Source: Bacillota bacterium (GTDB lineage Bacteria; Bacillota; Clostridia; Acetivibrionales; DSM-1351). Taken from it: a DNA stretch of 64,000 bases. The notes beneath the pieces are model-generated. The model was given only the letters and a program-made list of their open reading frames with translations. It was not told the DNA's origin and did not search any database. Of the stretch, positions 2,921-55,290 are shown in pieces. Within the stretch, counting starts at the first letter, position 1; every line of letters begins with the position of its first letter. The stretch is from positions 7,260-71,259 of the forward strand of contig JAEZIB010000155.1 of assembly GCA_023416275.1 (NCBI GenBank), given 5' to 3'. A program made the position numbers and the translations under genes.

Positions 2921-3229
2921 CTATATCTGCATTCTCATAATTTCTGTATATGCATCCACTATTTTATTTCGTATTGACATAGTGAATTGCAAAGCTATAC
3001 TTGCTTTCTCACCAGCAATTAATACCTCTGGAATATTATCTGTTTTTCCTAATGCAAAATCTTCTTTCAATTGAGCTGACTGATTTTCCATGTCAGTAAC
3101 CTTCATAAGAGCTGAGTTTAAATATTCACCAAAGCTAACCTCAGTCGAATTAGCCTTGTTAACATCACTACCTATTCCAATGTTGTCTGGTATTAACTGT
3201 TTTATCTGTGAAACGCCATCAATTGCCAT
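2921..3229 (-). CDS. fliE: flagellar hook-basal body complex protein FliE
   Basis: Start moved to MAIDGV (ATG at 3229, preceded by GGGAGGG). The extra codons MCLNGAWEGI in the track ORF are read-through of a repeated leader module. The FliE-type C-terminus LQFTMSIRNKIVDAYTEIMRMQI is present. Confidence 0.85.
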   Translation of the reverse strand: MAIDGVSQIKQLIPDNIGIGSDVNKANSTEVSFGEYLNSALMKVTDMENQSAQLKEDFALGKTDNIPEVLIAGEKASIALQFTMSIRNKIVDAYTEIMRMQI

Positions 3230-3323
3230 AATACCCTCCCACGCCCCATTTAGGCACAAAAATGATGAAACTATAAGTGCAGAGCCTGTGCTTCGCTGAG
3301 CTTAAACCACTCTCTTTCAAGCT
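3230..3323 (-). repeat. family-A intercistronic repeat: hairpin+SD module (3230-3263) plus a degenerate palindromic unit (3301-3323)
   Basis: The coding-strand sequence TTTTTGTGCCTAAATGGGGCGTGGGAGGGTATT-ATG is near-identical to the leaders of trmFO, dprA, trkA and a DJ-1 gene. Upstream of it lies a GCTTGAAA...TTTAAGC hairpin. Confidence 0.7.
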
Positions 3324-4326: not shown

Positions 4327-5640
4327 CTATTTTTCATAATAATTGTAAATTTGTTCCACTAGTTCTAGAGATTTTTGTGCTATTTGAGAATTTCTTTTCC
4401 TTTTATCTCTAATACTGGTATCAGCGCCAATGAATAAACCAAAATTAACATTCATAGGTTGGAAATTTTTCACGCTGGAATCAGAAATATAATGGCTTAA
4501 AGCGCCAATAGAAGTATTAGCTGGAAAAACCAGATTTCCCTTATTAAGGCATTTGGAGCAAGCATTTATTCCTGCAACAAAACCTGAAGCTGTTGATTCG
4601 ATATAACCTTCTACTCCTGTAATTTGACCAGCAAAATAAATAGAATCACTGTTTATCAATTTATATGTGTTATCTAATAGTTTGGGTGAATTTATATAAG
4701 TATTTCTATGCATAACGCCATATCTTACAAATTCAGCATTTTCCAAACCTGGAATTAGACTAAAAACTCTTTTTTGCTCTGGCCATTTCAAATGAGTTTG
4801 AAATCCTACTATATTATATAGTGTAGCATTTTTATTATCCTGTCTAAGTTGTACTACTGCATAAGGCTTTACATCTGATCTAGGATCCATCAATCCTACA
4901 GGCTTTAGTGGACCATACCTCATAGTATCTTTTCCTCTACTTGCCATGCTTTCTATAGGCATGCAGCCCTCAAAAACCATATTCTTTTCAAACTCCTTTA
5001 CCTCTGCCAACTCAGCATTAATTAAGGCATTATAGAATATTTCATACTCTTCTCTGTTCATAGGACAATTAATGTAATCCTCTGATCCTTTTCCATATCT
5101 AGCTGCCTTGAAAGCCTTATCCATATTAATAGAATCAAACGCAACAATTGGAGCAGCCGCATCAAAAAAGTGAAGATAGTCTTCTCCAATAAGCTGCCTT
5201 ATATGATTAAACATAGCTTCAGAAGTTAATGGCCCTGTAGCAATTATAGTAATATTATCATCCGGTAATCTCTCTTGTTCTCCATAAATAATTTCTATAT
5301 TCTCTATATTTTTTATAGTATTAGTAATATATTCTGAGAAGCCTTCTCTATCAACTGCTAATGCCCCGCCTGCCGGAACCCTTGTTGCATCTGCTGCCTT
5401 TAATATTAAAGAATCCATTAATCGCAGCTCTTCTTTTAATAGACCTACTGCATTTTCTAATTGATCTGATCTTAGTGAATTGCTGCAAACCAACTCTGCA
5501 AAATTTTCAGAATGATGTGCAGGGGAATATTTATGAGGCTTCATTTCAAATAACTTAACATTTATTCCTCTTTTGGCAATTTGATACGCTGCCTCACATC
5601 CTGCTAGTCCTGCTCCAATTACATTTATTGTTTTACTCAT
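4327..5640 (-). CDS. trmFO: methylenetetrahydrofolate--tRNA-(uracil-5-)-methyltransferase TrmFO (Gid)
   Basis: FAD dinucleotide fold INVIGAGLAGCEAAYQ and full-length TrmFO-like sequence. Start moved to MSKTINV (ATG 5640), because the 10 upstream codons (MCLNRTWEVC) are the repeated leader module. Confidence 0.93.
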   Translation of the reverse strand: MSKTINVIGAGLAGCEAAYQIAKRGINVKLFEMKPHKYSPAHHSENFAELVCSNSLRSDQLENAVGLLKEELRLMDSLILKAADATRVPAGGALAVDREGFSEYITNTIKNIENIEIIYGEQERLPDDNITIIATGPLTSEAMFNHIRQLIGEDYLHFFDAAAPIVAFDSINMDKAFKAARYGKGSEDYINCPMNREEYEIFYNALINAELAEVKEFEKNMVFEGCMPIESMASRGKDTMRYGPLKPVGLMDPRSDVKPYAVVQLRQDNKNATLYNIVGFQTHLKWPEQKRVFSLIPGLENAEFVRYGVMHRNTYINSPKLLDNTYKLINSDSIYFAGQITGVEGYIESTASGFVAGINACSKCLNKGNLVFPANTSIGALSHYISDSSVKNFQPMNVNFGLFIGADTSIRDKRKRNSQIAQKSLELVEQIYNYYEK

Positions 5641-5675
5641 GCAAACCTCCCACGTCCTATTTAGGCACAAAAATT
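5641..5675 (-). repeat. family-A hairpin+SD leader module
   Basis: Coding strand reads TTTTTGTGCCTAAATAGGACGTGGGAGGTTTGC-ATG, the same module as upstream of fliE. Confidence 0.7.
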
Positions 5676-5899
5676 TGTTAAAGACTTTATTGAAGAACCT
5701 ATGTGTTTTTTCCCATCAAATTGTAAGCTGTAAAGAAAGCTTATACAACAAAGGTCTTCTTTATTAATAATTTTATCTTAAATACACTTGCTGAATTTTT
5801 TAAAAGAATACAACTTTCGCAGGGTAAAAAACCATCTATAATTCTCCTGTACCGTAGAATTTTTATGTGCGATGGTTGATTAAGAAGTATTAGAGTTTT

Positions 5900-5940: not shown

Positions 5941-6032
5941 AATCTTATCTATTTCAATTACTTCACCTATTTTGCTCCCATTTTCTAATGCTTTGCCCAT
6001 TACTGAATATTCCTATTTAATTTATTATATAC

Positions 6033-8417
6033 TTATGCCTTTTTACTAGTTGTAGTTTTCTTTTTAACTGTTGATTTCTTCTTTGCTGCAGTTTCTTTTT
6101 TATCTGCTGTTTTCTTCTTTGCTGTAGTTTCTTTTTTATCTACTGTTTTCTTATTTGCTGTAGCTTCCTTTTTTACTGCAGTTTTCTTTTTTACTGTAGT
6201 TTCATTTTTATCTGCTGTTTTCTTCTTTGCTGCAGCTTCTTTTTTTACTGCAGTTTTATTCTTGACTGAAGAGTCCTTTTTTGCAGCGGCTTTCCTCTTT
6301 GTTGCAGCTTCTTTCTCTGATGCTGCTTCCTTCTTTATTGCAGAATCGGCATTAGTACTGCAGTTCTCATTACTGCAATATAATGTTATTTTTTTACCTG
6401 AAGATTTTTGAAGCATAAAAGCTCCACAGGTGGAGCAAATTTCATTACTAGGCATATCCCAACTCATAAACGTACATTCTGGATTTTTCTCACAACCTAT
6501 ATACTTTCTGCCTTTTCTTGTCTTTTTTATTAGCACCTTTCCCTGGCATAAAGGGCATAGCACACCCGCATCCTCAACAATGGCTTTTGTGTTTCTGCAC
6601 TCCGGAAATCCTGGACAAGCCAAAAATTTGCCGAATCTTCCCTGTTTGACAACCATTAATCTACCACATTTTTCACACGGTATGTCAGAAACCTCTACAG
6701 GTAGTTCTACATTTCCAATGCTTTCCTCAGCTTCATTTAACACTGTCTTAAAAGGACTATAAAACTCTTCTAATACTTCCTTCCATGCCTTTTCTCCCTC
6801 TGCAACAGCATCAAGCTTATCCTCCATCTGTGCAGTAAATTCTGCATTAACAATGTCTTTAAAATGTTTTACCATTATTTCATTGACTATCTTACCTAAT
6901 TCAGTAGGTATCAAGCATTTTTTATCTTTAATTACATATCCCCTTGATAAAATAGTAGATATTGTTGGTGCATAAGTACTAGGTCTACCAATACCTCTCT
7001 CTTCAAGTGATTTTACTAATGTTGCCTCTGTATACCGAGGAGGCGGTTGAGTAAAATGCTGTTTTGGCAAGTTGCCTTTCAATATTAGTTCATCACCTTC
7101 AAATAACGGAGGAAGATTATTAGCTTCATCATCTGACTCTTCATCCTTACCCTCTATATATAAAACCATAAATCCTGGAAATTTAATCTTTGAACCACTG
7201 GCTTTGAATAAATAATCTCCAACAGAAATATCTGCATTAACAGTATCATAAACTGCTGATGACATTTGGCTGGCAATAAACCTGCTCCAAATAAGCTTGT
7301 AAACTTTATATTGTTCAGATGTTAATGAATCCTTAATATCATCTGGAGCCAAATCTACATAAGATGGACGTATAGCTTCATGTGCATCCTGCGATGCCGA
7401 TTTGTTTTTGTAAACCTTAGGAACCTCTGGAATATATTCTTTTCCGTATTTTGTGTTTATATAATTTCTAGCTTCATTTTGAGCTTCCTCAGATATTCTA
7501 GTTGAATCAGTTCTCATATATGTTATAAGTCCAACTGAACCACGACCTTTTATATCAACACCTTCATACAGACGTTGTGCAACCATCATTGTTTTCTTGG
7601 TAGTAAATCCCAATTTTCTTGACGCTTCTTGTTGCAAGGTACTAGTGATAAAAGGTGCTGCTGCTGCTCTTTTCTTTTCCTGCTCCTTGACCTTTTGCAC
7701 TATATATTTGCTTTTGGCTATTTCGTCTAAAATAGCATTAACCTGTTCACCATTTGTCAGTTCAATTTTCTCTTTTTTGGTTCCATAAAACTTAGCCTCA
7801 AAAGCGGGACTTGTTTTCGGTTTTTCCAAATTAGAAACTATTGACCAATATTCCTCGGGTGTAAATTCCTCTATTTCTTTCTCTCTATCACAAATCATTT
7901 TTGTTGCAACAGATTGAACCCTGCCGGCACTCAGCCCCTTTTTCACTTTTTTCCAAAGCAAAGGACTTATTTTATAGCCTACTATCCTATCTAAGACTCT
8001 CCTTGCCTGCTGTGCATCAACAAGATTTGTATCTATTTCTCTTGGCTGCTTTAATGCATTTTTTACAGCATTTTGAGTTATTTCATTAAATGAAACCCTA
8101 CATTTCTGTCCTTCATCTATATTTAAAATATGGGCTAAATGCCAAGATATTGCCTCTCCCTCTCGGTCAGGGTCAGTTGCAAGATAAATTTTCTTTGCAG
8201 ACTTTGCTTCCTTCTTAAGTTTTGAAATAACATCACCTTTTCCCCGAATAGTGATGTATTTAGGCTCAAAATTATTTTCAATATCCACACCAATCTGACT
8301 TTTAGGTAAATCTCTAATATGTCCGATAGACGCTTCAACCTTATAACCCTTGCCTAAAAACTTTCCAATTGATTTTACTTTTCCAGGAGACTCCACAATA
8401 ACCAGGTTATCAGCCAT
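6033..8417 (-). CDS. topA: DNA topoisomerase I with a Lys-rich repetitive C-terminal tail
   Basis: TOPRIM N-terminus LVIVESPGKVKSI, a type IA core and Cys4 zinc ribbons (CEKCGR..C..C, CPLCQG..C..C, CSTCGA..C..C). These are followed by about 110 aa of KK(E/K)(A/T)A-type repeats. Confidence 0.95.
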   Translation of the reverse strand: MADNLVIVESPGKVKSIGKFLGKGYKVEASIGHIRDLPKSQIGVDIENNFEPKYITIRGKGDVISKLKKEAKSAKKIYLATDPDREGEAISWHLAHILNIDEGQKCRVSFNEITQNAVKNALKQPREIDTNLVDAQQARRVLDRIVGYKISPLLWKKVKKGLSAGRVQSVATKMICDREKEIEEFTPEEYWSIVSNLEKPKTSPAFEAKFYGTKKEKIELTNGEQVNAILDEIAKSKYIVQKVKEQEKKRAAAAPFITSTLQQEASRKLGFTTKKTMMVAQRLYEGVDIKGRGSVGLITYMRTDSTRISEEAQNEARNYINTKYGKEYIPEVPKVYKNKSASQDAHEAIRPSYVDLAPDDIKDSLTSEQYKVYKLIWSRFIASQMSSAVYDTVNADISVGDYLFKASGSKIKFPGFMVLYIEGKDEESDDEANNLPPLFEGDELILKGNLPKQHFTQPPPRYTEATLVKSLEERGIGRPSTYAPTISTILSRGYVIKDKKCLIPTELGKIVNEIMVKHFKDIVNAEFTAQMEDKLDAVAEGEKAWKEVLEEFYSPFKTVLNEAEESIGNVELPVEVSDIPCEKCGRLMVVKQGRFGKFLACPGFPECRNTKAIVEDAGVLCPLCQGKVLIKKTRKGRKYIGCEKNPECTFMSWDMPSNEICSTCGAFMLQKSSGKKITLYCSNENCSTNADSAIKKEAASEKEAATKRKAAAKKDSSVKNKTAVKKEAAAKKKTADKNETTVKKKTAVKKEATANKKTVDKKETTAKKKTADKKETAAKKKSTVKKKTTTSKKA

Positions 8418-10052: not shown

Positions 10053-11177
10053 CTATAAGCACATTTCAAATATCTTACCTGGCTGTTGTGTAATAATACC
10101 TTTCATTTCTAACATAAATAAAAGATTATTAACTTCCTTTGCTGAAATATTGCTTCTTTCAATAATTTCATCAATTTGGTGGATTCCATTAGATATAATT
10201 TTTACTATACGAATTTCCTCAGTATTCAGACCTTTGAATATACTGAAATTTCTATTTCGACATGATTTAGATATATTATTTTTTGTTATATTATTATTAA
10301 TTATTTCTCCATATTGGAATTCCTCCAAAATATCTTCAACATTTATAACCATTTTAGCTCCGTCTTTAATCAGTTGATTTGTACCATTACTATATGCAGA
10401 ATCTATATTTCCAGGCACAGCAAAAACCTCTCTTCCTTGTTCTAAAGCATAACTGACCGTAATTAGTGAGCCACTTCTTCTGGCAGCCTCTACGACCAAT
10501 ACTCCAGATGAAATACCACTGATTATTCTGTTTCTTGCAGGAAAATTATGTTGAAGTGGCGGCATACCAGGTGGGTATTCAGATATGATTAAGCCTTCGG
10601 ATTTGATTATATTTTCAAAGAGACCTTTATTTTCTGGTGGATATATACTATCAAGCCCACAGCCTAAAACAGCTATAGTTTTGCCATTGGCATCTAGGCA
10701 TCCTTCATGGGCGATCCTATCTATTCCCCTTGCTAGACCGCTGACAATTTGAATACCTCGTAGTGCCAGTTGATATGATAGGGTTTTGGCAGAATGAGCA
10801 CCATAATTTGTTGTTCTTCTTGAGCCTACAATTGCTATAGCAAAGTCATTGATTTGGAACTTACCCATATAATATAAAGCAATTGGCGGATCATATATTT
10901 GCTTGAGATTATTTGGATATCTTTCATCAAATATGTTTAGCAATTTTATATTATGTTTGACCATTAGGCTATAAATCACAGCTACTCGTTCTCTTTTCTG
11001 AACATCTAATATTTCCTTAATATTCTTAGCCGTTAAGAAATTTGTTTCTTTTAGCTCTTGTTCTGTCATAAAATATATAGTCCTTGGTACTTTATAAATC
11101 TGAAGAAGTGCCATTGCCTTAACAGCGCCTAGCCCTTGTAATGAGGACATCCAAATCCAATATTCTATTTCCTTCAT
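10053..11177 (-). CDS. dprA: DNA processing protein DprA (Smf)
   Basis: 374 aa with the DprA Rossmann-like core (SGLARGIDRIAHEG, VVEAARRSGSLIT) and a C-terminal winged-helix-like part. Confidence 0.93.
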   Translation of the reverse strand: MKEIEYWIWMSSLQGLGAVKAMALLQIYKVPRTIYFMTEQELKETNFLTAKNIKEILDVQKRERVAVIYSLMVKHNIKLLNIFDERYPNNLKQIYDPPIALYYMGKFQINDFAIAIVGSRRTTNYGAHSAKTLSYQLALRGIQIVSGLARGIDRIAHEGCLDANGKTIAVLGCGLDSIYPPENKGLFENIIKSEGLIISEYPPGMPPLQHNFPARNRIISGISSGVLVVEAARRSGSLITVSYALEQGREVFAVPGNIDSAYSNGTNQLIKDGAKMVINVEDILEEFQYGEIINNNITKNNISKSCRNRNFSIFKGLNTEEIRIVKIISNGIHQIDEIIERSNISAKEVNNLLFMLEMKGIITQQPGKIFEMCL

Positions 11178-11426
11178 ACTAACCTCCTACGCCCCTTCTT
11201 GGGTATAAAAATAATGTGAAACAATTGGTGGAGTATTTTTTACTGCACATTCTTTATATGAAACCCACACTAGCAAAAACCCACTTTGTGGGTTTTTGTT
11301 GCTCGAAAAAGCACAATGTTCGCACAGATTTTGTTTTCGAAGCTCGAAAAAGCACAATGTTCGTACAAACTTTGTTTTCGAGGCTCGAAAAAGCACAATG
11401 TTCGTACAAACTTTGTTTTCGAGCTG
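11178..11426 (-). repeat. family-A composite: hairpin+SD module, AATGTG..CACATT pair, terminator-like hairpin and 3 tandem 41-nt palindromic units
   Basis: SD module at 11178-11212. AATGTG (11213-18) and CACATT (11246-51) form an inverted pair. AAAAACCCACTTTGTGGGTTTTT lies at about 11274-11296. Three units of GCTCGAAAAAGCACAATGTTCG(T/C)ACA.A.TTTGTTTTCGA(G/A) span 11301-11424. This fills the whole comM-dprA spacer. Confidence 0.85.
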
Positions 11427-12959: not shown

Positions 12960-12986
12960 TTAATATCCTCTTTTCATTTATTATTG

Positions 12987-13103
12987 ACTCAACTTTTCCA
13001 TATAAAAGTCTATTGGTGCTCAAACTTATCAATGGTTTGTTGCATTTATCTTTTTATTTGATAGAGCTCCTACACTTACATTTTTAAACTGTAAAAGTTG
13101 AGT
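12987..13103. repeat. family-B MITE-like element (117 bp)
   Basis: Terminal inverted repeats ACTCAACTTTTCCA and CTGTAAAAGTTGAGT. The core TCAAACTTATCAATGGTTTGTTGC is shared with copies at 40860, 48021 and 55500. Confidence 0.75.
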
Positions 13104-22631: not shown

Positions 22632-22782
22632 AATGTGTTACTATATTGGCAAAATCACTTGTGTTATTTAAGATTCGATAATGCACCATGTTTGCACAAA
22701 CACTTCTATATTGACAAAAACCACTTGTGGGCTTTGGGGCTCGAAAACGCACCATGTATGCAGCAATTTTCGTTTCGAGCTT
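22632..22782 (-). repeat. family-A repeat copy forming the left end of the segment that interrupts murA
   Basis: AATGTGTTACTATATT terminus (22632-22647), a partial unit ..GCACCATGTTTGCACA.., a hairpin AAAAACCACTTGTGGGCTTT, and the palindromic unit GCTCGAAAACGCACCATGTATGCAGCAATTTTCGTTTCGAGC (22739-22780). Confidence 0.8.
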
Positions 22783-25299: not shown

Positions 25300-25575
25300 A
25301 CGAAATGTGATGAATGGGAAAAGTAAATTATATGTGTCTTTACAGCGAGCAATGAGATGATGGAAGCATTGCAGGATAGTATACTTGAAGTTCTCCCACG
25401 AACAGTTGGCTGAAACTTATATGTAGGTCGTACCGGGTCTTCCCGTTATAGAAGGAGTGTATCGGATAGCTTATGGTTTTCCTGTACATGTATGAGTGGG
25501 TTTTAACCAATTTGGGTGGTAACGCGTGGATACAAGTCTTCGTCCCTATTTTATTAGGGATGAGGGCTTTTTTTA
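25300..25575 (+). promoter_or_regulatory. T-box leader (probably Phe-specific) with intrinsic terminator
   Basis: GTGATGA K-turn motif and Stem-I motifs AGCGAG and GATGATGGAAG. T-box core CAATTTGGGTGGTAACGCG at 25508-25526. A 13-bp terminator stem (25536-25548 with 25555-25567) is followed by U7. The specifier context GAAG-UUC-U (25391-25393) parallels GAAU-UAC-A in the tyrS leader of this window. Confidence 0.85.
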
Positions 25576-33524: not shown

Positions 33525-33624
33525 AGCTTTTTGATCCTACTTTCTTATAATACTATTTCGTATTTAAAATATAGAAACAATATCCTAAATATTGCTTTGA
33601 ATATTTTTATCACCGATTAATGCA

Positions 33625-33740
33625 GTGCCAAGCTTGAAAACAAAGCTTGTACGAACATAGTGCATTTTCAAGCACAAAAAACCACAAGTGGTTTTTGCAG
33701 TGAAAACTATATGAAAAGGGGCGTAGGAGGTTATTATTTA
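33625..33740 (+). repeat. family-A repeat copy in the opposite orientation, with an orphan SD module
   Basis: Palindromic unit GCTTGAAAACAAAGCTTGTACGAACATAGTGCATTTTCAAGC (33632-33673), hairpin AAAAAACCACAAGTGGTTTTT, then AAAAGGGGCGTAGGAGGTTATT (33715-33736). No start codon follows that module. Confidence 0.75.
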
Positions 33741-36102: not shown

Positions 36103-37332
36103 TTAACTGTTTATTTTAATTCTTACAAAGTTCTTTTTACCTCTTTGTAGCATCATCTGGTCATCTATTAAATCACTTTTTCCTACAGAGTATTCAATGC
36201 TGTCTACTTTGTTTTCATTTAGTGAAACTCCGCCCTGCTGAACAGCTCTGCGTGCTTCACTCTTTGAAGGTGTCAAGCCAGCAATTACTAATAAATCAGT
36301 TATTTTTATTCCTGCTTCAAGTTCTGTTAAGCTTATTTCAACTGATGGAACGTTATCTGATTTGCCTTTACCTCCAAAAATAGCTTCAGCAGCCTCTTTT
36401 GCTTTTAATGCCTCTGTGTCGCCATGAACAATTTTTGTAACTTCATAAGCAAGCACAGCTTTTGCTTCATTTATTTGAGCATCCTTAAGAGCACCTAATC
36501 TTTTTACCTCTTCCATTGGTAAGAAAGTCAGCAATGACAAGCATCTTTCAACATCGTTATCACTTACATTTCTCCAGTACTGGTAAAATTCATATGGACT
36601 TGTTTTTTGAGGATCAAGCCAAATAGCTCCTCCCTCAGTTTTTCCCATCTTTTTACCCTCGCTCGTAGTGAGAAGAGTAAATGTCATACCGTAAACGCTC
36701 TTTGATTCACATTTTCTGACAAGCTCAAGTCCCCCTAGAATATTAGACCATTGATCGTCACCGCCCAACTGCATTTGACAATCATATTTTTTATTTAACA
36801 CTAGAAAATCATAACTCTGCATTAGCATGTAATTAAATTCTAAAAATGTTAAACCCTTTTCCATTCTGCTTTTAAAGCACTCAGCTGTAAGCATTCTATT
36901 AACAGAAAAATGAACTCCAACATTTCTTAAAAATTCTACGTAATTCAAGTCTAAGAGCCAATCAGAATTGTCCACCATAATTGCTTTATCATCAGAAAAA
37001 TCAATGAATTTTGAAATTTGTGTTTTAAAGCAGCTTGAATTGTGCTCAATAATTTCCTTTGTCATCATTTTTCTCATATCATTTTTGCCTGTTGGATCAC
37101 CAACCATTGCAGTTCCGCCGCCTATAAGCGCGATTGGTCTGTGGCCATGCTGTTGCATATGAGCCATAACCATTAGCTGTAAAAAATGTCCAACATGTAA
37201 ACTATCAGCAGTAGGATCAAACCCAATATAAAAAGTAACCTTTTTTTCACTCAATAGCTTTTTGACTTCATCTTCATGTGTAATCTGAGCAATAAATCCT
37301 CTCTCTTGTAATACATCAAAAACATTTTTCAT
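36103..37332 (-). CDS. tyrS: tyrosine--tRNA ligase
   Basis: HIGH-type motif (LHVGH), KMSKS-type motif (KMGKT) and a C-terminal S4 domain, 409 aa. Confidence 0.96.
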
Positions 37333-37445
37333 TACCTATCACTCCTCATTAATCTAATAATTTAAAATTTGATTTTCATATTCCGTTAACTTAATTCTCA
37401 TTATTGCGTAGCATAGCCAAGTTGGATTGAAATATCTATTATGCA

Positions 37446-37705
37446 AAAATAAAAGCCCTTTGTCCTAATATAAGGACGAAGAGCTCGTGGTACCACCTTA
37501 ATTCACACCTATTATTATCATAAAACAATTTTAATGATATATTTAAGATAATAAGATGTCTTAATAAGCTATAACGGGCATACCCGACATAAGCAGCTCA
37601 TAATTTGTAATTCACCGTTTCTGCGTATTTCAATCTTTTCACCAACCAGATTGCTCTCTTAAAATAACTGCAGACAGCTAATAGGGATTAATCATCGCTT
37701 TAAAT
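37446..37705 (-). promoter_or_regulatory. T-box leader, Tyr specifier (UAC), with terminator
   Basis: Minus strand carries AGCGATGA, AGAGAG and GGTTGGTGAAAAG Stem-I motifs. The specifier context is GAAU-UAC-A (UAC at 37607-37609). T-box core AATTAAGGTGGTACCACG, then a terminator stem CTTCGTCCT..AGGACAAAG followed by a U-tract. Confidence 0.85.
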
Positions 37706-37747: not shown

Positions 37748-37823
37748 CTATAATAATTTTTTACTTAACTTTTCAATAAAAATAAGAATAGTTTTGGCTT
37801 TTCTTTTTAAAACATTGTAAATG

Positions 37824-38480
37824 TTATCCAATGAAGAATTCTTTTAATTCCTGTTGGTCATTCAATGATGATGCTGTAATAATAAAATCCCCATCTAATA
37901 ATACAGTATCACCTTTAGGAATTACTACTGAGTCCTCCCTAATTACAGATATCAATACACAGTCCTTTGGGATTGTAATTTCCTTTAAGGATTTGTTTAC
38001 AACTGGCGATGACGCTGTAATGGTTATTTCACTTAGTGCCACCTTTCCTCCCTTGAGCTTCATAAGTGTCTTCATGCCCATGAAATCAACCTCTTGCTCA
38101 ATTAAATCTGCAATTACTGAAGTACTACTCAAGGCAATATCTACCCCTAGTTTTTCAAAAATATCTATATTTTTTGGATTATTTACCCTTGCTATTGTCC
38201 TTCTCACTCCAAAATTTCTTTTTGCAAGCTGACAGGCAATAAGATTGTTCTCATCTTTTCCTGTAACAGCTATAAAGGTATCCGCTTTATCAACTAAGCA
38301 CTCTGTTAAATGATCTATATTTGTACCATCTCCATTAACAACAGTTATCCTCAACTCATTCGCTATTTTTTCACACAAATTTTTTTTACTTTCAATGACG
38401 GCTATTTTATGTTTATATTGGTGAAGAGTCTTAGCTAAATAGTAACCAACGTTTCCTCCACCTGCAATTACAATGTTCAT
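37824..38480 (-). CDS. trkA: Trk/Ktr potassium uptake regulatory subunit (TrkA-N plus TrkA-C)
   Basis: NAD fold IVIAGGGNVGYYLA and a C-terminal RCK_C part, 218 aa. Confidence 0.88.
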   Translation of the reverse strand: MNIVIAGGGNVGYYLAKTLHQYKHKIAVIESKKNLCEKIANELRITVVNGDGTNIDHLTECLVDKADTFIAVTGKDENNLIACQLAKRNFGVRRTIARVNNPKNIDIFEKLGVDIALSSTSVIADLIEQEVDFMGMKTLMKLKGGKVALSEITITASSPVVNKSLKEITIPKDCVLISVIREDSVVIPKGDTVLLDGDFIITASSLNDQQELKEFFIG

Positions 38481-38812
38481 AATAACCTCCCACGCCCACT
38501 CTGGGCAATAAAAAATAATAAAGTTATCGTGGAGGTACGCCTCCTTCTTGATAGCTTAAGTCAAATTCTTTAAAGCTACCTCCCACGCCAACTTAAGGCA
38601 ATAAAATTAAATTAACTATCGTGGAAAACTTCTATTTAGGTATAAATATACAGTATTCCTTACAGCTTCACACCACACTGTCAAAAACACGCTTGCGGGT
38701 TTTTGTTGCTCGAAAAGGCACCATGTTTATACAATTGCCTCACTACAAAACCGCATGCGGTTTTGCGGCTCGAAAAGGCACCATGTTTATACACTCTTTT
38801 TTCGAGCTAGTA
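38481..38812 (-). repeat. family-A composite filling the whole trkA-trkA spacer
   Basis: Two hairpin+SD modules (38481-38513 and an orphan at 38576-38607) and a GGAGGTACGCCTCC hairpin. There are also two units of hairpin + GCTCGAAAAGGCACCATGTTTATACA (38709-38736 and 38768-38809), the second closed by TTTTCGAGC that overlaps the upstream trkA stop. Confidence 0.85.
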
Positions 38813-40859: not shown

Positions 40860-41021
40860 ATTCAACTTTGCTCATAAAAGACTTTGTTGTGGTAGAATTA
40901 TCAATGGTTTGTTACCAAAATAATTGCAGGAAATTAGTAATGGTTCCTACAATTATCGTCTAATCAAATGCTCCATTGATAGGTCTCTCTCATCAATAAT
41001 TTTCAACTGTAAAAGTTGAAT
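40860..41021. repeat. family-B MITE-like element (162 bp)
   Basis: ATTCAACTTTGCTCA ... core TTATCAATGGTTTGTTACCAAAATAATTGC ... CTGTAAAAGTTGAAT. Confidence 0.7.
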
Positions 41022-47399: not shown

Positions 47400-47984
47400 C
47401 TATTTGTTATAGCAGGTTATTGTTTTAAAGAATTCCTGCTTATCAAAGTCGTCCTTGAACATACCAAAATAATCAGCAATTTCTATAGCAAAATCCACAA
47501 ATGAAATCCCCTTAGAAGTAATTACATTTTTGTCTCGTACTACCCTTGTATTAACAAAATTTTCTCTTGGAAATGGATCATCTTCATTGCCAAAAGCTTC
47601 TCTTCTTGCCTGAGTCCATTCTACAATTGATGTGGTATATTTGACATTTTTTAATATGCCTGCCTTTGCAAAATATCTAGGTCCTGCACAAATTGCTGCA
47701 AGTAATTTTCCACTATTATTAAATTCATTTATTAGAGTGAGCATTTCCTCTTTTACAACTGGATTCCATCCACCCGGTATAATAAATCCAGTATAATCAT
47801 CCGAAACTGCCGCTGCCACAGTAATTTCCGGCATATAAACCATTCCGCCCTTACTTTTTACAGGTCTTCTGTCATATGCACAAGTTACTATTTGCTTTGA
47901 CAGTTCATGTCCAAGCAAATGAGTGGCATAAACCACTTCAAAATCAGCCATATCATCATACATAAATACTAAAACTTTTTCCAT
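47400..47984 (-). CDS. DJ-1/PfpI family protein
   Basis: Nucleophile elbow AAICAGP. Start moved to MEKVLVF (ATG 47984). Confidence 0.8.
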   Translation of the reverse strand: MEKVLVFMYDDMADFEVVYATHLLGHELSKQIVTCAYDRRPVKSKGGMVYMPEITVAAAVSDDYTGFIIPGGWNPVVKEEMLTLINEFNNSGKLLAAICAGPRYFAKAGILKNVKYTTSIVEWTQARREAFGNEDDPFPRENFVNTRVVRDKNVITSKGISFVDFAIEIADYFGMFKDDFDKQEFFKTITCYNK

Positions 47985-48016
47985 CCTAACCTCCCACACC
48001 TATTAATGTAAAAATA
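47985..48016 (-). repeat. family-A hairpin+SD leader module (diverged)
   Basis: Coding strand reads TTTTTACATTAATAGGTGTGGGAGGTTAGG-ATG. Confidence 0.6.
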
Positions 48017-48020
48017 ATTT

Positions 48021-48163
48021 ACTCAACTTTCCCACATAAAAAATCTATCAGTGTTCAAACTTATCAATGGTTTGTTACTGAAATAGTTGCACATCCGGCA
48101 AGCTTTTTTACCAATTAATTCATGCAATTGTTTCTAACCCATCTTTCCTGTGATAAGTTGAAC
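48021..48163. repeat. family-B MITE-like element (143 bp) lying between the SD module and the palindromic unit of a family-A element
   Basis: ACTCAACTTTCCCACATAAAAAATCTATCAGTGTTCAAACTTATCAATGGTTTGTTAC ... CTGTGATAAGTTGAA. Confidence 0.7.
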
Positions 48164-48306
48164 ACCTCCCTACTCAAAAAAATGTTTGCACAAACGTTTT
48201 TGATCTATACGTCCTTACACTGCCAAAAAGCCGCTAATTACTTTCTTACAAAAACACAGTGTAGAATTAGCTGCACATATATAAAAATGCACAAATGGCC
48301 TTTTAA

Positions 48307-48348
48307 GCTCGAAATAGCACTATGTTTGCACCAACTACTCTTTCGAGC
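48307..48348 (-). repeat. family-A palindromic unit
   Basis: GCTCGAAATAGCACTATGTTTGCACCAACTACTCTTTCGAGC. It supplies the last codons and stop of the upstream ORF. Confidence 0.7.
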
Positions 48349-54311: not shown

Positions 54312-54354
54312 ACGCAACTTTCCAACACAAAAAATCTTTCGGTACTCAAACCTA
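54312..54354. repeat. family-B element, left half only
   Basis: ACGCAACTTTCCAACACAAAAAATCTTTCGGTACTCAAACCTATTAAT, abutting the pstC stop. Confidence 0.5.
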
Positions 54355-55290
54355 TTAATATTCCTTCCTATACTTATCTACTATTCTGTTAGAAAGAATA
54401 TTGAGTCCTAATGTTATTAAAAACAGCAATAAACCTACTGCAAACAGAGAATAATACCCAACTGTTCCATGAGGATTGTCCCCCTGACTTGCCTGCACAA
54501 TAAAAGATGTCATTGTCTGTACACTTTGCAGTGGATTTAGCGTCAAATTAGGCCTTGCACCTGCTGCAATAGTAACTATCATGGTTTCTCCTATTGCTCT
54601 AGATATTGCAAGTACAAACGAAGCTGCTATCCCTGAAATAGCTGCTGGAACAACCACCTTCATTGATGTTTCCATTTTAGTGGAGCCTAAAGCTAAAGCA
54701 CCCTGTCTTAGACTGTCCGGAACTGCTCGCATTGCATCCTCGCTCAATGATGAGACTAGTGGAATTATCATGATACCTACAGCAATTCCTGCACTTAATG
54801 CATTAAAAACTTCCGTTTGAGGTATGAAAAACTGTAAAACAGGAGTTATTGTTGTTAAAGCAAAATATCCAAATACTATAGATGGAATACCTGCAAGCAC
54901 CTCTAATATTGGCTTTACAATCTTTCTAACCCTTTTGTTTGCATACTCACTTAGATAAATAGCAGTAAATAATCCAATTGGTATTGCAATTAAAGCAGCA
55001 ATAAAAGTAATTAATAGAGTACCACATATTAACGGTAAAACACCAAAGCTAGGTTCACTAAATAGCGGAGTCCATTCCTTTCCAAAAAGGAAATCTGTTA
55101 TAGAAATCTCAGAAAAGAATCCGACAGAATCCTTAAGTAAGGATACTATTATGCCAATTGTTGTTAAAATTGTGATAATAGCAAATAGAAATAATATATT
55201 TTTTGCAATAACATTTGAAAGCTTCATTCTCTTAATTCTGTTCCTGTTTGCTGCTTTTAAACTTTGTAAAGCTTCAGTAGTATCTGTCAT
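54355..55290 (-). CDS. pstC: phosphate ABC transporter permease PstC
   Basis: 311 aa, 6 TM segments and the loop SRAIGETMIV typical of PstC. Confidence 0.9.
   Translation of the reverse strand: MTDTTEALQSLKAANRNRIKRMKLSNVIAKNILFLFAIITILTTIGIIVSLLKDSVGFFSEISITDFLFGKEWTPLFSEPSFGVLPLICGTLLITFIAALIAIPIGLFTAIYLSEYANKRVRKIVKPILEVLAGIPSIVFGYFALTTITPVLQFFIPQTEVFNALSAGIAVGIMIIPLVSSLSEDAMRAVPDSLRQGALALGSTKMETSMKVVVPAAISGIAASFVLAISRAIGETMIVTIAAGARPNLTLNPLQSVQTMTSFIVQASQGDNPHGTVGYYSLFAVGLLLFLITLGLNILSNRIVDKYRKEY

Follow-up and report, generated by a model that had tools for sequence, protein, structure and literature searches.

A dispersed, sense-oriented intergenic repeat ends in the ribosome-binding site of unrelated genes in a Ruminiclostridium clade

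INTRODUCTION

The Neisseria repeat REP2 (contact regulatory element of Neisseria, CREN) and the inverted repeat (IR) of Borrelia plasmids are dispersed upstream of unrelated open reading frames (ORFs) and carry a promoter, a ribosome-binding site (RBS), an ATG and predicted RNA-level stem-loops (PMC3184786). MIRUs (mycobacterial interspersed repetitive units) are 40-100 bp long, intercistronic, gene-oriented, often tandem and copy-variable, occur in polycistronic mRNA, and have both filled and empty sites when species are compared (PMC3184786). Here we describe a repeat from a 64,000-nt stretch of a Bacillota contig (GenBank JAEZIB010000155.1, assembly GCA_023416275.1, forward-strand positions 7,260 to 71,259; called the window below and numbered from its first letter), whose units end in the Shine-Dalgarno sequence (SD), spacer and start codon of genes such as fliE, dprA and trkA.

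Like REP2 and the Borrelia IR, this repeat stands directly upstream of unrelated ORFs and brings an RBS and a start codon, as it does at 48 of 63 copies. Unlike REP2, which has ~26 copies, its own promoter and a co-regulated gene set, our unit contains no sigma-70-like promoter, is about ten times denser, forms tandem arrays and has its SD inside a predicted hairpin; the comparison with REP2 is by description, not by sequence, and phylum and base composition differ. As with MIRUs, the units are gene-oriented, occur in tandem within operon spacers and vary in copy number (two versus four before lspA). MIRU ORFs overlap the flanking genes, whereas no frame is consistently open in our units, a 31-codon ORF in the arrays of lspA and locus L081 excepted; MIRUs moreover have a high GC content, and SD-masking hairpins are no part of their description.

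The closest structural analogue is the FourU thermometer (Salmonella agsA and others; PMC3185406), in which a U-run pairs with the SD in a hairpin just 5' of the start, as is predicted here; FourU elements are single-locus and belong to heat-shock and virulence genes, unlike this repeat family before housekeeping genes. The repetitive extragenic palindromes (REP) and bacterial interspersed mosaic elements (BIMEs) of enterobacteria share with our loci the form of an intergenic mosaic of a few short structured modules transcribed within operons. Unlike our uniformly oriented units 5' of start codons, these short palindromes, which are associated with a RAYT transposase, alternate in orientation as BIMEs, lie mostly 3' of genes and have no RBS. 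Miniature inverted-repeat transposable elements (MITEs), which have terminal inverted repeats and insert in either orientation with a target-site duplication, differ in that all 63 of our copies have a single orientation and no target-site duplication is seen at flgC-fliE. In Bacillus, mRNAs are stabilised by 5' stem-loops or by 30S binding to STAB-SDs; these elements work at transcript ends and do not form a single repeat family. Like STAB-SDs, some of our units carry an SD-like leader sequence that is not used for initiation. Finally, operon-internal stem-loops of R. cellulolyticum set transcript stoichiometry, and those of Ruminiclostridium with paired A/U tracts are partial terminators (PMC9045158); they too are sited in intercistronic spacers (PMC9045158) but, unlike our units, are not a single family of repeats. 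Because it differs from each of these in a defining feature (no promoter, no conserved unit ORF, no link to stress genes, uniform orientation, no target duplication), the element is an RBS-bearing intergenic repeat that is not a member of any named family. Literature searches did not find a description of it.

RESULTS

A sense-oriented repeat carries the SD and start register of many genes

At five unrelated genes of the window (fliE, trmFO, dprA, trkA and a DJ-1/PfpI-family gene, identified by Pfam matches on syntenic contigs), all on the minus strand, a common leader of ~33 nt sets GGAGG-N5-ATG in identical register. The core CGTRGGAGG occurs six times in the window versus 0.08 expected from dinucleotide-preserving shuffles, and TTTTTRT-N8-15-CGTRGGAGG four times versus none expected. 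The remaining SD-bearing genes of the window have an ordinary A-rich context (e.g. aaaGGAGG), and a GGGAGG-type SD is also present at four further genes. A preliminary description of the window had listed seven copies of this leader, all of which we found where it placed them; the shared leader of the five genes is real, and the likeness among leaders goes beyond chance, as seen in the window enrichment, in the covariance model scores given below and in the clustering of matches within one clade.

The pattern TTTTTRT-N6-13-GNCGTRGGAGG-N5-ATG was scanned against 185,579 species, each represented by a single genome. It matched 65 stretches, of which 30 (with 31 matches) fell to just four of these genomes: R. 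sufflavum DSM 19573 and three Bacillota metagenome-assembled genomes (MAGs), OH_PDB_205, OH_SDB_116 and OH_SFB_193. None of the other 35 stretches is a family member by covariance model (best 23.9 bits), and these are singletons except for three from one Arenicellales MAG (OY843749.1; L064, L080, L085). The latter belong to an unrelated repeat that fails the family model; its three copies read ...GTCTTTTTGTCGGTGGCACnATGGACGTGGGAGGTGAYGATG, a coincidental match to the pattern. The same strict pattern hit 25 viral-contig and 51 JGI metagenome stretches, all singletons and usable only as a baseline for chance; against the family model, the 51 metagenome stretches gave a single weak match of 30.5 bits. 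By these searches the repeat is restricted to the R. sufflavum/herbifermentans clade. The window itself (33% G+C, most genes on the minus strand) is placed by sequence in an uncultured lineage of Ruminiclostridium (Oscillospiraceae), because its FlgC is 97% identical to that of R. herbifermentans, 83% to that of R. hungatei and 80% to that of R. cellobioparum. Its TrkA protein has an identical match in MAG GCA_023414895.1 and several metagenome scaffolds.

Over 285 kb from five genomes (the window and loci of the four relatives), the model detects 63 copies. The relatives contribute 57 copies in 221 kb, and 26 of these 57 are not the ones that brought their loci into the set. With tandem neighbours discounted, the density is about one locus per 13-16 kb, and in the window 5 of ~55 genes. 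All 63 copies are sense to the downstream gene, with no antisense or free-standing copy in the 285 kb. At 48 of the 63, including copies that lie outside the ATG-containing scan pattern, GGAGG-N5-ATG begins a reading frame of 50 aa or more; one copy has N9 spacing instead, and ~13 are internal units of tandem arrays. Because the unit ends in SD, N5 and ATG, the cassette is the RBS of the downstream gene; a dispersed, sense-oriented repeat thus supplies the SD and start register for about 8-9% of genes.

The downstream genes include fliE, trmFO, dprA, trkA, cheW, his genes, lspA, cysK and spoVAD. The module is portable in the sense first proposed, preceding many unrelated genes, and these (housekeeping, flagellar, histidine-biosynthesis and sporulation genes) have no functional theme in common, which argues against a specific regulon. 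At gathering thresholds Rfam detects only a T-box and tRNA in the window, and with E values up to 10 it finds nothing credible over the trkA and dprA leaders; the lack of any Rfam match agrees with the initial view that the module lies outside described leader and riboswitch classes.

Anatomy of the unit and its arrays

Alignment of the scan matches shows conservation reaching ~45 nt further upstream than the module first described; what was taken for a 30-nt module pasted before five genes is the terminal (3') part of a larger repeat unit of 78-110 nt, present in five genomes. Type-a units (~78-92 nt) have the layout ...GGAGGTTAGC-TTGAAAGACTTTAGATA-(N)-TAGCGTACCTCCACG-AAGTCTTTACCAAA-TTTTTRTGCCnn-loop-nnGGCGTRGGAGGTTAnT-ATG, and type-b units (~110 nt) have one extra hairpin, ACCTCTGC-GAA-GCAGAGGT, placed before TCTCCAC. 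Covariance model R1, of 78 positions, identifies six clear copies in the window, scoring 38-70 bits, and a weak relic (Table 1).

Table 1. Repeat units, start codons and neighbouring features, in window coordinates
Feature	Position	Strand	Remarks
Unit before fliE	3227..3302	minus	Type b; R1 65.0 bits; hairpin + SD ~3230-3262
Unit before trmFO	5638..5715	minus	R1 69.0 bits; hairpin + SD ~5641-5673, -7.1 kcal/mol
Unit before dprA	11175..11253	minus	CGTAGGAGG variant; R1 60.5 bits
Gene-proximal unit before trkA	38478..38554	minus	Type a; R1 69.5 bits; anti-SD arm 38528-38536
Upstream (orphan) unit of the trkA two-unit tandem	38578..38646	minus	R1 37.8 bits
Degenerate unit before DJ-1/PfpI-family gene	47982..48059	minus	R1 40.8 bits
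Relic or partial copy	33650..33738	plus	R1 13.1 bits, E = 4.8; core 33715-33736, with CGTAGGAGG at 33722-33730
Upstream modules of the trkA intergenic mosaic	38684..38807	minus	Direct-repeat families D2, D4
Start codons (ATG) of cassette genes	fliE 3229, trmFO 5640, dprA 11177, trkA 38480, DJ-1 47984	minus
41-nt hairpin repeat	11302-11424, 22675-22778, 33560-33605, 38710-38807, 48298-48346		1-3 head-to-tail copies
CAAAAA..TTTTTG palindrome	~11275-11299, ~22715-22740, ~33607-33630, ~38684-38707, ~38747-38766
~60-nt upstream repeat	12980-13041, 40876-40940, 48014-48076, 54330-54367, 37756-37783
18-nt tandem repeat at topA 3' end	6015-6374	minus	At least 13 copies
tyrS	36103-37332
tyrS leader	~37400-37700	minus	T-box-like
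T-box (Rfam)	25301-25550	plus	Sole T-box at gathering threshold

The gene-proximal trkA unit consists of an anti-SD arm (ACCTCCACG), an AU-rich spacer, the T-run, a GCCCAgagTGGGC stem, CGTGGGAGG, TTATT and the ATG; its hairpin is predicted at -11 kcal/mol (z = -2.2). The fliE unit, within the flgB-flgC-fliE operon, carries the extra hairpin as GCTCAGC-GAA-GCACAGGC. Before the DJ-1 gene the core is GGTGTGGGAGG and the stem is decayed and weak; the orthologous copy in MAG OH_PDB_205 (L068) is intact. Two near-identical N-terminal extensions that had been noticed, MCLNGAWEG and MCLNRTWEV, are indeed in frame and have their source in a TTG inside TTTTTGTGCC.

Two copies had been set apart for having no start codon. 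Both exist, yet they do not form a class of their own: one is the upstream unit of the trkA tandem, its start-less SD (CGTGGGAGGT) lying 93 nt 5' of the trkA SD, and the other is a relic in which GGGGCGTAGGAGGTTATT is followed by ATT rather than ATG, without T-run or 5' arm. Preceding the relic are a palindrome and a copy of the 41-nt hairpin repeat, and the next gene is 290 nt further on.

Tandem arrays comprise 2-4 units with a period of 85-112 nt, mostly ~92 nt (four units at L043, three at L090, two each at L044, L033, L042 and L071). The lspA arrays have four units in OH_SFB_193 and two in OH_PDB_205, a three-unit array lies upstream of an oxidoreductase-like gene in R. sufflavum, and the window has its two-unit array before trkA. 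Start-less SD-like leader sequences thus comprise the orphan at trkA and the ~13 array-internal units of the relatives.

Other functions were sought in the unit. (i) No reading frame is conserved across units, with median open stretches of 40, 60 and 16 nt for the respective frames. A 31-codon ORF (MKKLKFSCNKLRTSTIDKLNFYAESWRGRLL*) does run through array-internal units at lspA in two MAGs (L043 5247-5600, L044 5223-5392) and at L081 (2194-2354), from the unit ATG to a TGA overlapping the next ATG (ATGA), a 93-nt unit being 31 codons; it is limited to the lspA and L081 arrays, and its between-species differences are mostly nonsynonymous. A conserved upstream ORF or translational coupling was therefore rejected as a general mechanism, since no frame is kept open and the changes in the lspA ORF are mostly nonsynonymous. 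(ii) Scans, limited to sigma-70-like sites, found none within units above shuffle expectation; a sigma-70 promoter with the R of TTTTTRT as transcription start was rejected on this ground and because -10-like hexamers are poorly conserved. (iii) On inspection, an intrinsic terminator was rejected for either strand, as the T-run lies 5' of the hairpin on the sense strand and the A-run 3' of it on the antisense strand.

A predicted hairpin that includes the SD

RNAalifold on 36 copies predicts a single extended hairpin, and so do the minimum free energy folds of almost every individual copy; at -5 to -16.6 kcal/mol, it has UUUUURUGCCnn paired with nnGGCGURGGAG, UUUUU standing opposite GGGAG (or AGGAG) through G.U pairs. 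The hairpin had first been taken to lie merely 5' of the SD; in the predicted fold the SD is itself the 3' arm of a 12-14-bp hairpin with the T-run as its partner, and it would be mostly masked because T-run and SD form the lower arms of one structure.

Across the alignment of all 63 copies, 90.2% of cells are paired, versus 46-63% when the 3' partners are slid, and the covariation score is above all 500 shuffles. The fourth apical pair (58-65) is CG in 22 copies, GC in 13, AU in 6, GU in 5, UG in 5, UA in 2 and unpaired in 9. The base-pair-preserving stem variation seen at first in the window copies therefore extends to the family, with the fourth pair in all four Watson-Crick forms, and the apical stem is maintained. 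Both purine-only (R) positions are opposite U, with pairing kept. The lower stem has 297 G.U cells versus 2 A.C cells (upper stem, 18 versus 9), so that the full hairpin could form on the sense strand only. At 37 C the SDs of the 48 cassette genes have a predicted accessibility of 0.22, versus 0.51 for those of 23 other SD-bearing window genes (p = 2e-6).

A distal anti-SD arm

A pyrimidine-rich arm lies ~40 nt upstream of the SD, and in type-a units it is ACCTCCACG, complementary to CGTGGGAGGT. The 3' end of 16S rRNA, ACCUCC, is resembled by this arm. In the helix formed by the distal arm and the SD, 75% of cells are paired, and C/U changes retain pairing to G. The 11-nt arms of type-a units are 91% complementary (GGAGGTxCGCx / xGCGxACCTCC) and ~30-40 nt apart, the inverted arms being 11-15 nt long; type-b and degenerate units do not have them. 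Around the anti-SD of type-a units an SD-like arm lies ~40 nt to each side, with equal duplex energies of around -12 kcal/mol; at trkA the values are -12.3 kcal/mol with the downstream SD and -13.9 kcal/mol with the upstream one. This distal pairing is predicted to be available to the SD in a third of copies. The type-a ACCUCCACG arm may mimic the 16S 3' end and pair with the SD of its own unit or of the preceding one. Start-less SDs inside arrays are predicted to be locked by 11-15-bp pairings extending through the spacer, and the gene-proximal SD would be left with a weaker partner, the T-run, or with distal pairing over a shorter length. Perhaps the three-arm layout could act as a switch.

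Insertion, constraint and decay

The spacer between the flgC stop and the fliE start is 14 nt (TAAttGGGAGGtttcaaATG) in R. hungatei and in an R. cellobioparum-like genome, and 161 nt in the window and 148 nt in an R. herbifermentans-like contig. Given the 14-nt empty sites in these outgroups, the fliE unit is a lineage-specific insertion into the operon. No target-site duplication is visible on comparing the filled and empty flgC-fliE sites.

The cassette is kept at orthologues, in three species for cheW and in two each for fapA, hisC, lspA, paaK and DJ-1. For six orthologous pairs the 36-nt module has diverged by 0.08-0.22, versus 0.22-0.57 at fourfold-degenerate sites of the adjacent genes; orthologous copies from four species are conserved 3-5 times better than those sites, and stem changes such as A:U to G.U occur among them. 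Such low divergence points to constraint or to concerted evolution. Two observations suggest that copies have exchanged sequence: two species carry different unit subtypes at hisC, and R. sufflavum has a predominant stem variant of its own (GA..TC, 9 of 15 copies).

In the R. herbifermentans-like contig the fliE, trmFO and dprA hairpins are decayed, scoring 41.7, 24.4 and 28.7 bits, and the trmFO site of the R. herbifermentans-like L096 has no hairpin left. These modules have diverged by 0.25-0.33, at or above the neutral 0.11-0.26.

Neighbouring repeats and other observations

Several further elements accompany the units or lie elsewhere in the window. (i) The 41-nt hairpin repeat, GCTCGAAAA-(loop with TGTAYRAACATnGTGC)-TTTTCGAGC, has no Rfam match, repeats head-to-tail with a 41-nt period and is usually upstream of the SD cassette. 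Before dprA there are three copies in the window versus one in the R. herbifermentans-like contig. On the minus strand at ~22770 the hairpin begins two bases past a TGgTATAAT box and may be a transcript 5' end. (ii) Palindromes of the form CAAAAA-NCCNC-loop-GNGGN-TTTTTG directly follow the 41-nt hairpins and have stems that vary in a compensating manner (CCCAC/GTGGG, CCGC/GCGG and, in relatives, TCCAC/GTGGA). They resemble the paired-U-tract internal terminators of cellulolytic clostridia (PMC9045158), and are also found within the his operon of relatives (L071, L078). A palindrome and three 41-nt hairpins lie upstream of the dprA unit, the trkA mosaic has hairpin repeat then A5-stem-T5 palindrome twice over, and the trio of hairpin repeat, palindrome and unit recurs in L083 as a 176-nt super-unit. 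(iii) A third upstream repeat of ~60 nt, AACAAACCATTGATAAGTTTGAGCACC...TTTTATRTGGRAAAGTTGAGT, precedes several unrelated genes, at DJ-1 directly 5' of the SD cassette, and could be a promoter or operator. (iv) A ~90-nt stretch, GCTGTTTTGGCCTATTGCTTTTGTGTGGGGCTCAT...CCCTGAAAGCCATTCCAAGGTGG, is common to the paaK leaders of R. sufflavum (L090, ~7040-7140) and OH_SFB_193 (L042, ~2290-2400), upstream of the SD cassette, and may be a separate structured leader. (v) The 18-nt tandem repeats are in the C-terminal coding part of topA and imply a repetitive, probably lysine-rich tail (ORF of 794 aa, versus 782 aa in the R. herbifermentans-like contig). (vi) The long tyrS leader, with AATTAAGGTGGTACCACGAG and a terminator-like stem, is T-box-like; at the Rfam gathering threshold no T-box is called there.

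DISCUSSION

With moderate confidence, we read the element as a domesticated dispersed repeat that probably acts as an SD-masking ribosome-binding cassette. The cassette would be a standardised translation-initiation region, attenuated or conditionally opened, to which the ribosome might gain access by melting of the weak G.U-rich stem, whether through temperature, helicase or ribosome traffic, or competition between SD and anti-SD. Together with the terminator-like palindromes upstream, it may help to set the relative expression of neighbouring cistrons. Its spread could have been by transposition, recombination or gene conversion.

Several points weigh against this reading. SD masking is predicted from folding and pair counts only. 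The window hairpins are weak (-5 to -11 kcal/mol) and, with z = -0.75 to -2.2, barely beat dinucleotide shuffles, because any U-run and G-run can pair; whole-leader folds (z = -1.6 and +1.6) are not unusually stable against shuffles, and only the local hairpin is consistent. The lower stem is unable to show covariation because both of its sides are nearly invariant, and real covariation is found mainly at one pair and partly at a second. As the copies are paralogous, independent compensatory events number ~4-6, not 63. Part of the module conservation comes from SD and spacer alone, and concerted evolution among copies could mimic purifying selection. Finally, decay at three sites without gene loss in the R. 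herbifermentans-like contig means that the hairpin is dispensable in that lineage.

Rival readings were weighed, several of which could hold together. It is rather unlikely that the repeat is selfish or neutral DNA of MITE or REP kind, its hairpin and arms being DNA-level features for a transposase or intrastrand repair with no regulatory role as RNA; that copies survive only where a usable SD happens to result is likewise an unlikely part of this idea. Selfish spread would explain the restriction to one lineage with empty sites in outgroups, the varying copy number (two versus four lspA units, three versus one 41-nt hairpins before dprA), the mosaics with other repeat families, the 11-15-nt inverted arms of type-a units, the genome-specific stem variants with subtype replacement at hisC, and the neutral decay in one lineage. 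It does not explain why 63 of 63 copies are sense and 48 in exact start-codon register, nor why the lower stem pairs only via G.U as sense RNA, which leaves a DNA-level stem of only ~5 bp, nor the greater conservation of orthologous copies, by 3-5 times in four species, relative to fourfold-degenerate sites. The filled flgC-fliE site has no target-site duplication, and no transposase association was found, no genome-wide search having been made.

A processing or stabiliser module, one of the roles first proposed, is a tentative alternative, to which we give a minor share of belief. An RNase Y-like cut would fall in the AU-rich spacer (GAAAGUCUUUACCAAA), hairpin and SD-bound ribosome would protect the new 5' end, and the orphan SDs would be STAB-SD-like. 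The spacer directly 5' of the hairpin is conserved (alignments A1 and A2), start-less orphan SDs exist, a co-oriented gene lies upstream of 38 of 45 copies, and units stand before several his-operon cistrons and within flgB-flgC-fliE. Stem-loops internal to Ruminiclostridium operons are documented to set transcript stoichiometry (PMC9045158). Against such a role, the hairpin would open with ~5 weak G.U pairs, a poor protective 5' stem, and masking of the SD opposes protection by ribosomes. The stabiliser and the SD-masking cassette are compatible.

A bolder version of the cassette reading, which we consider improbable, is that a mobile riboregulator cassette has replaced the native RBS of ~8% of genes, with decoy SD, anti-SD and real SD forming an RNA switch through which one signal would tune hundreds of unrelated genes. 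The signal might be temperature, the level of free ribosomes or a dedicated RNA-binding factor, and the regulon would have been born of repeat dispersal; the R. herbifermentans-like lineage, with its neutral decay, would then have lost the signal or factor.

That the family is a genome-wide FourU-like RNA thermometer, with melting of the U5:GGGAG stem making ~8% of genes temperature-dependent, is quite improbable. The architecture fits the FourU definition of consecutive U paired to the SD (PMC3185406). Predicted SD accessibility rises with temperature, being 0.18, 0.19, 0.22, 0.27 and 0.41 at 20, 30, 37, 45 and 55 C, but gradually and by little between 30 and 45 C (0.19 to 0.27), and at physiological temperatures the apical stem, being GC-rich, would stay closed. 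Further points against a thermometer are the mesophilic, fermentative nature of the hosts and the kinds of gene concerned (housekeeping, flagellar, histidine-biosynthesis and sporulation, not heat-shock or virulence).

We are very doubtful that the unit is, as was also proposed at first, a shared operator for a trans-acting RNA-binding protein, or for a small RNA with a CCUCCCACG-like or GCCCACUUUGGGCAUAAAAA-like sequence, governing a repeat-borne regulon. The CGTRGGAGG core is invariant beyond the needs of an SD, pairing of this kind is feasible, as the cis anti-SD arms show, and hairpin decay in one lineage would fit loss of the factor; but no candidate factor was found, there are no antisense or free-standing copies in the 285 kb, the genes have no common theme, and the stem sequence is free to differ from copy to copy, as would not favour a single small RNA. 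Chance resemblance among strong RBSs, for which the GGGAGG-type SDs at four other window genes might speak, has practically no standing, being refuted by the window counts (six versus 0.08, four versus none), the 38-70-bit scores and the clustering of matches in one clade among 185,579 genomes.

This is a real and abundant family that appears to be undescribed, and the general phenomenon has precedents. As the TTG in the T-run and the array-internal SDs give spurious extensions and small ORFs, gene callers can be expected to mis-start genes in this clade. For engineering of the genus Ruminiclostridium, which is used in consolidated bioprocessing, the cassette is also a small, portable RBS part, and with a cultured carrier, R. 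sufflavum DSM 19573, the question of its function is directly testable. If SD masking holds true, roughly a tenth of the genes of these cellulolytic clostridia, cistrons of the his and flagellar operons included, would have one translation-initiation structure in common, and the repeat would be a natural example of how dispersal can standardise and rewire translation genome-wide.

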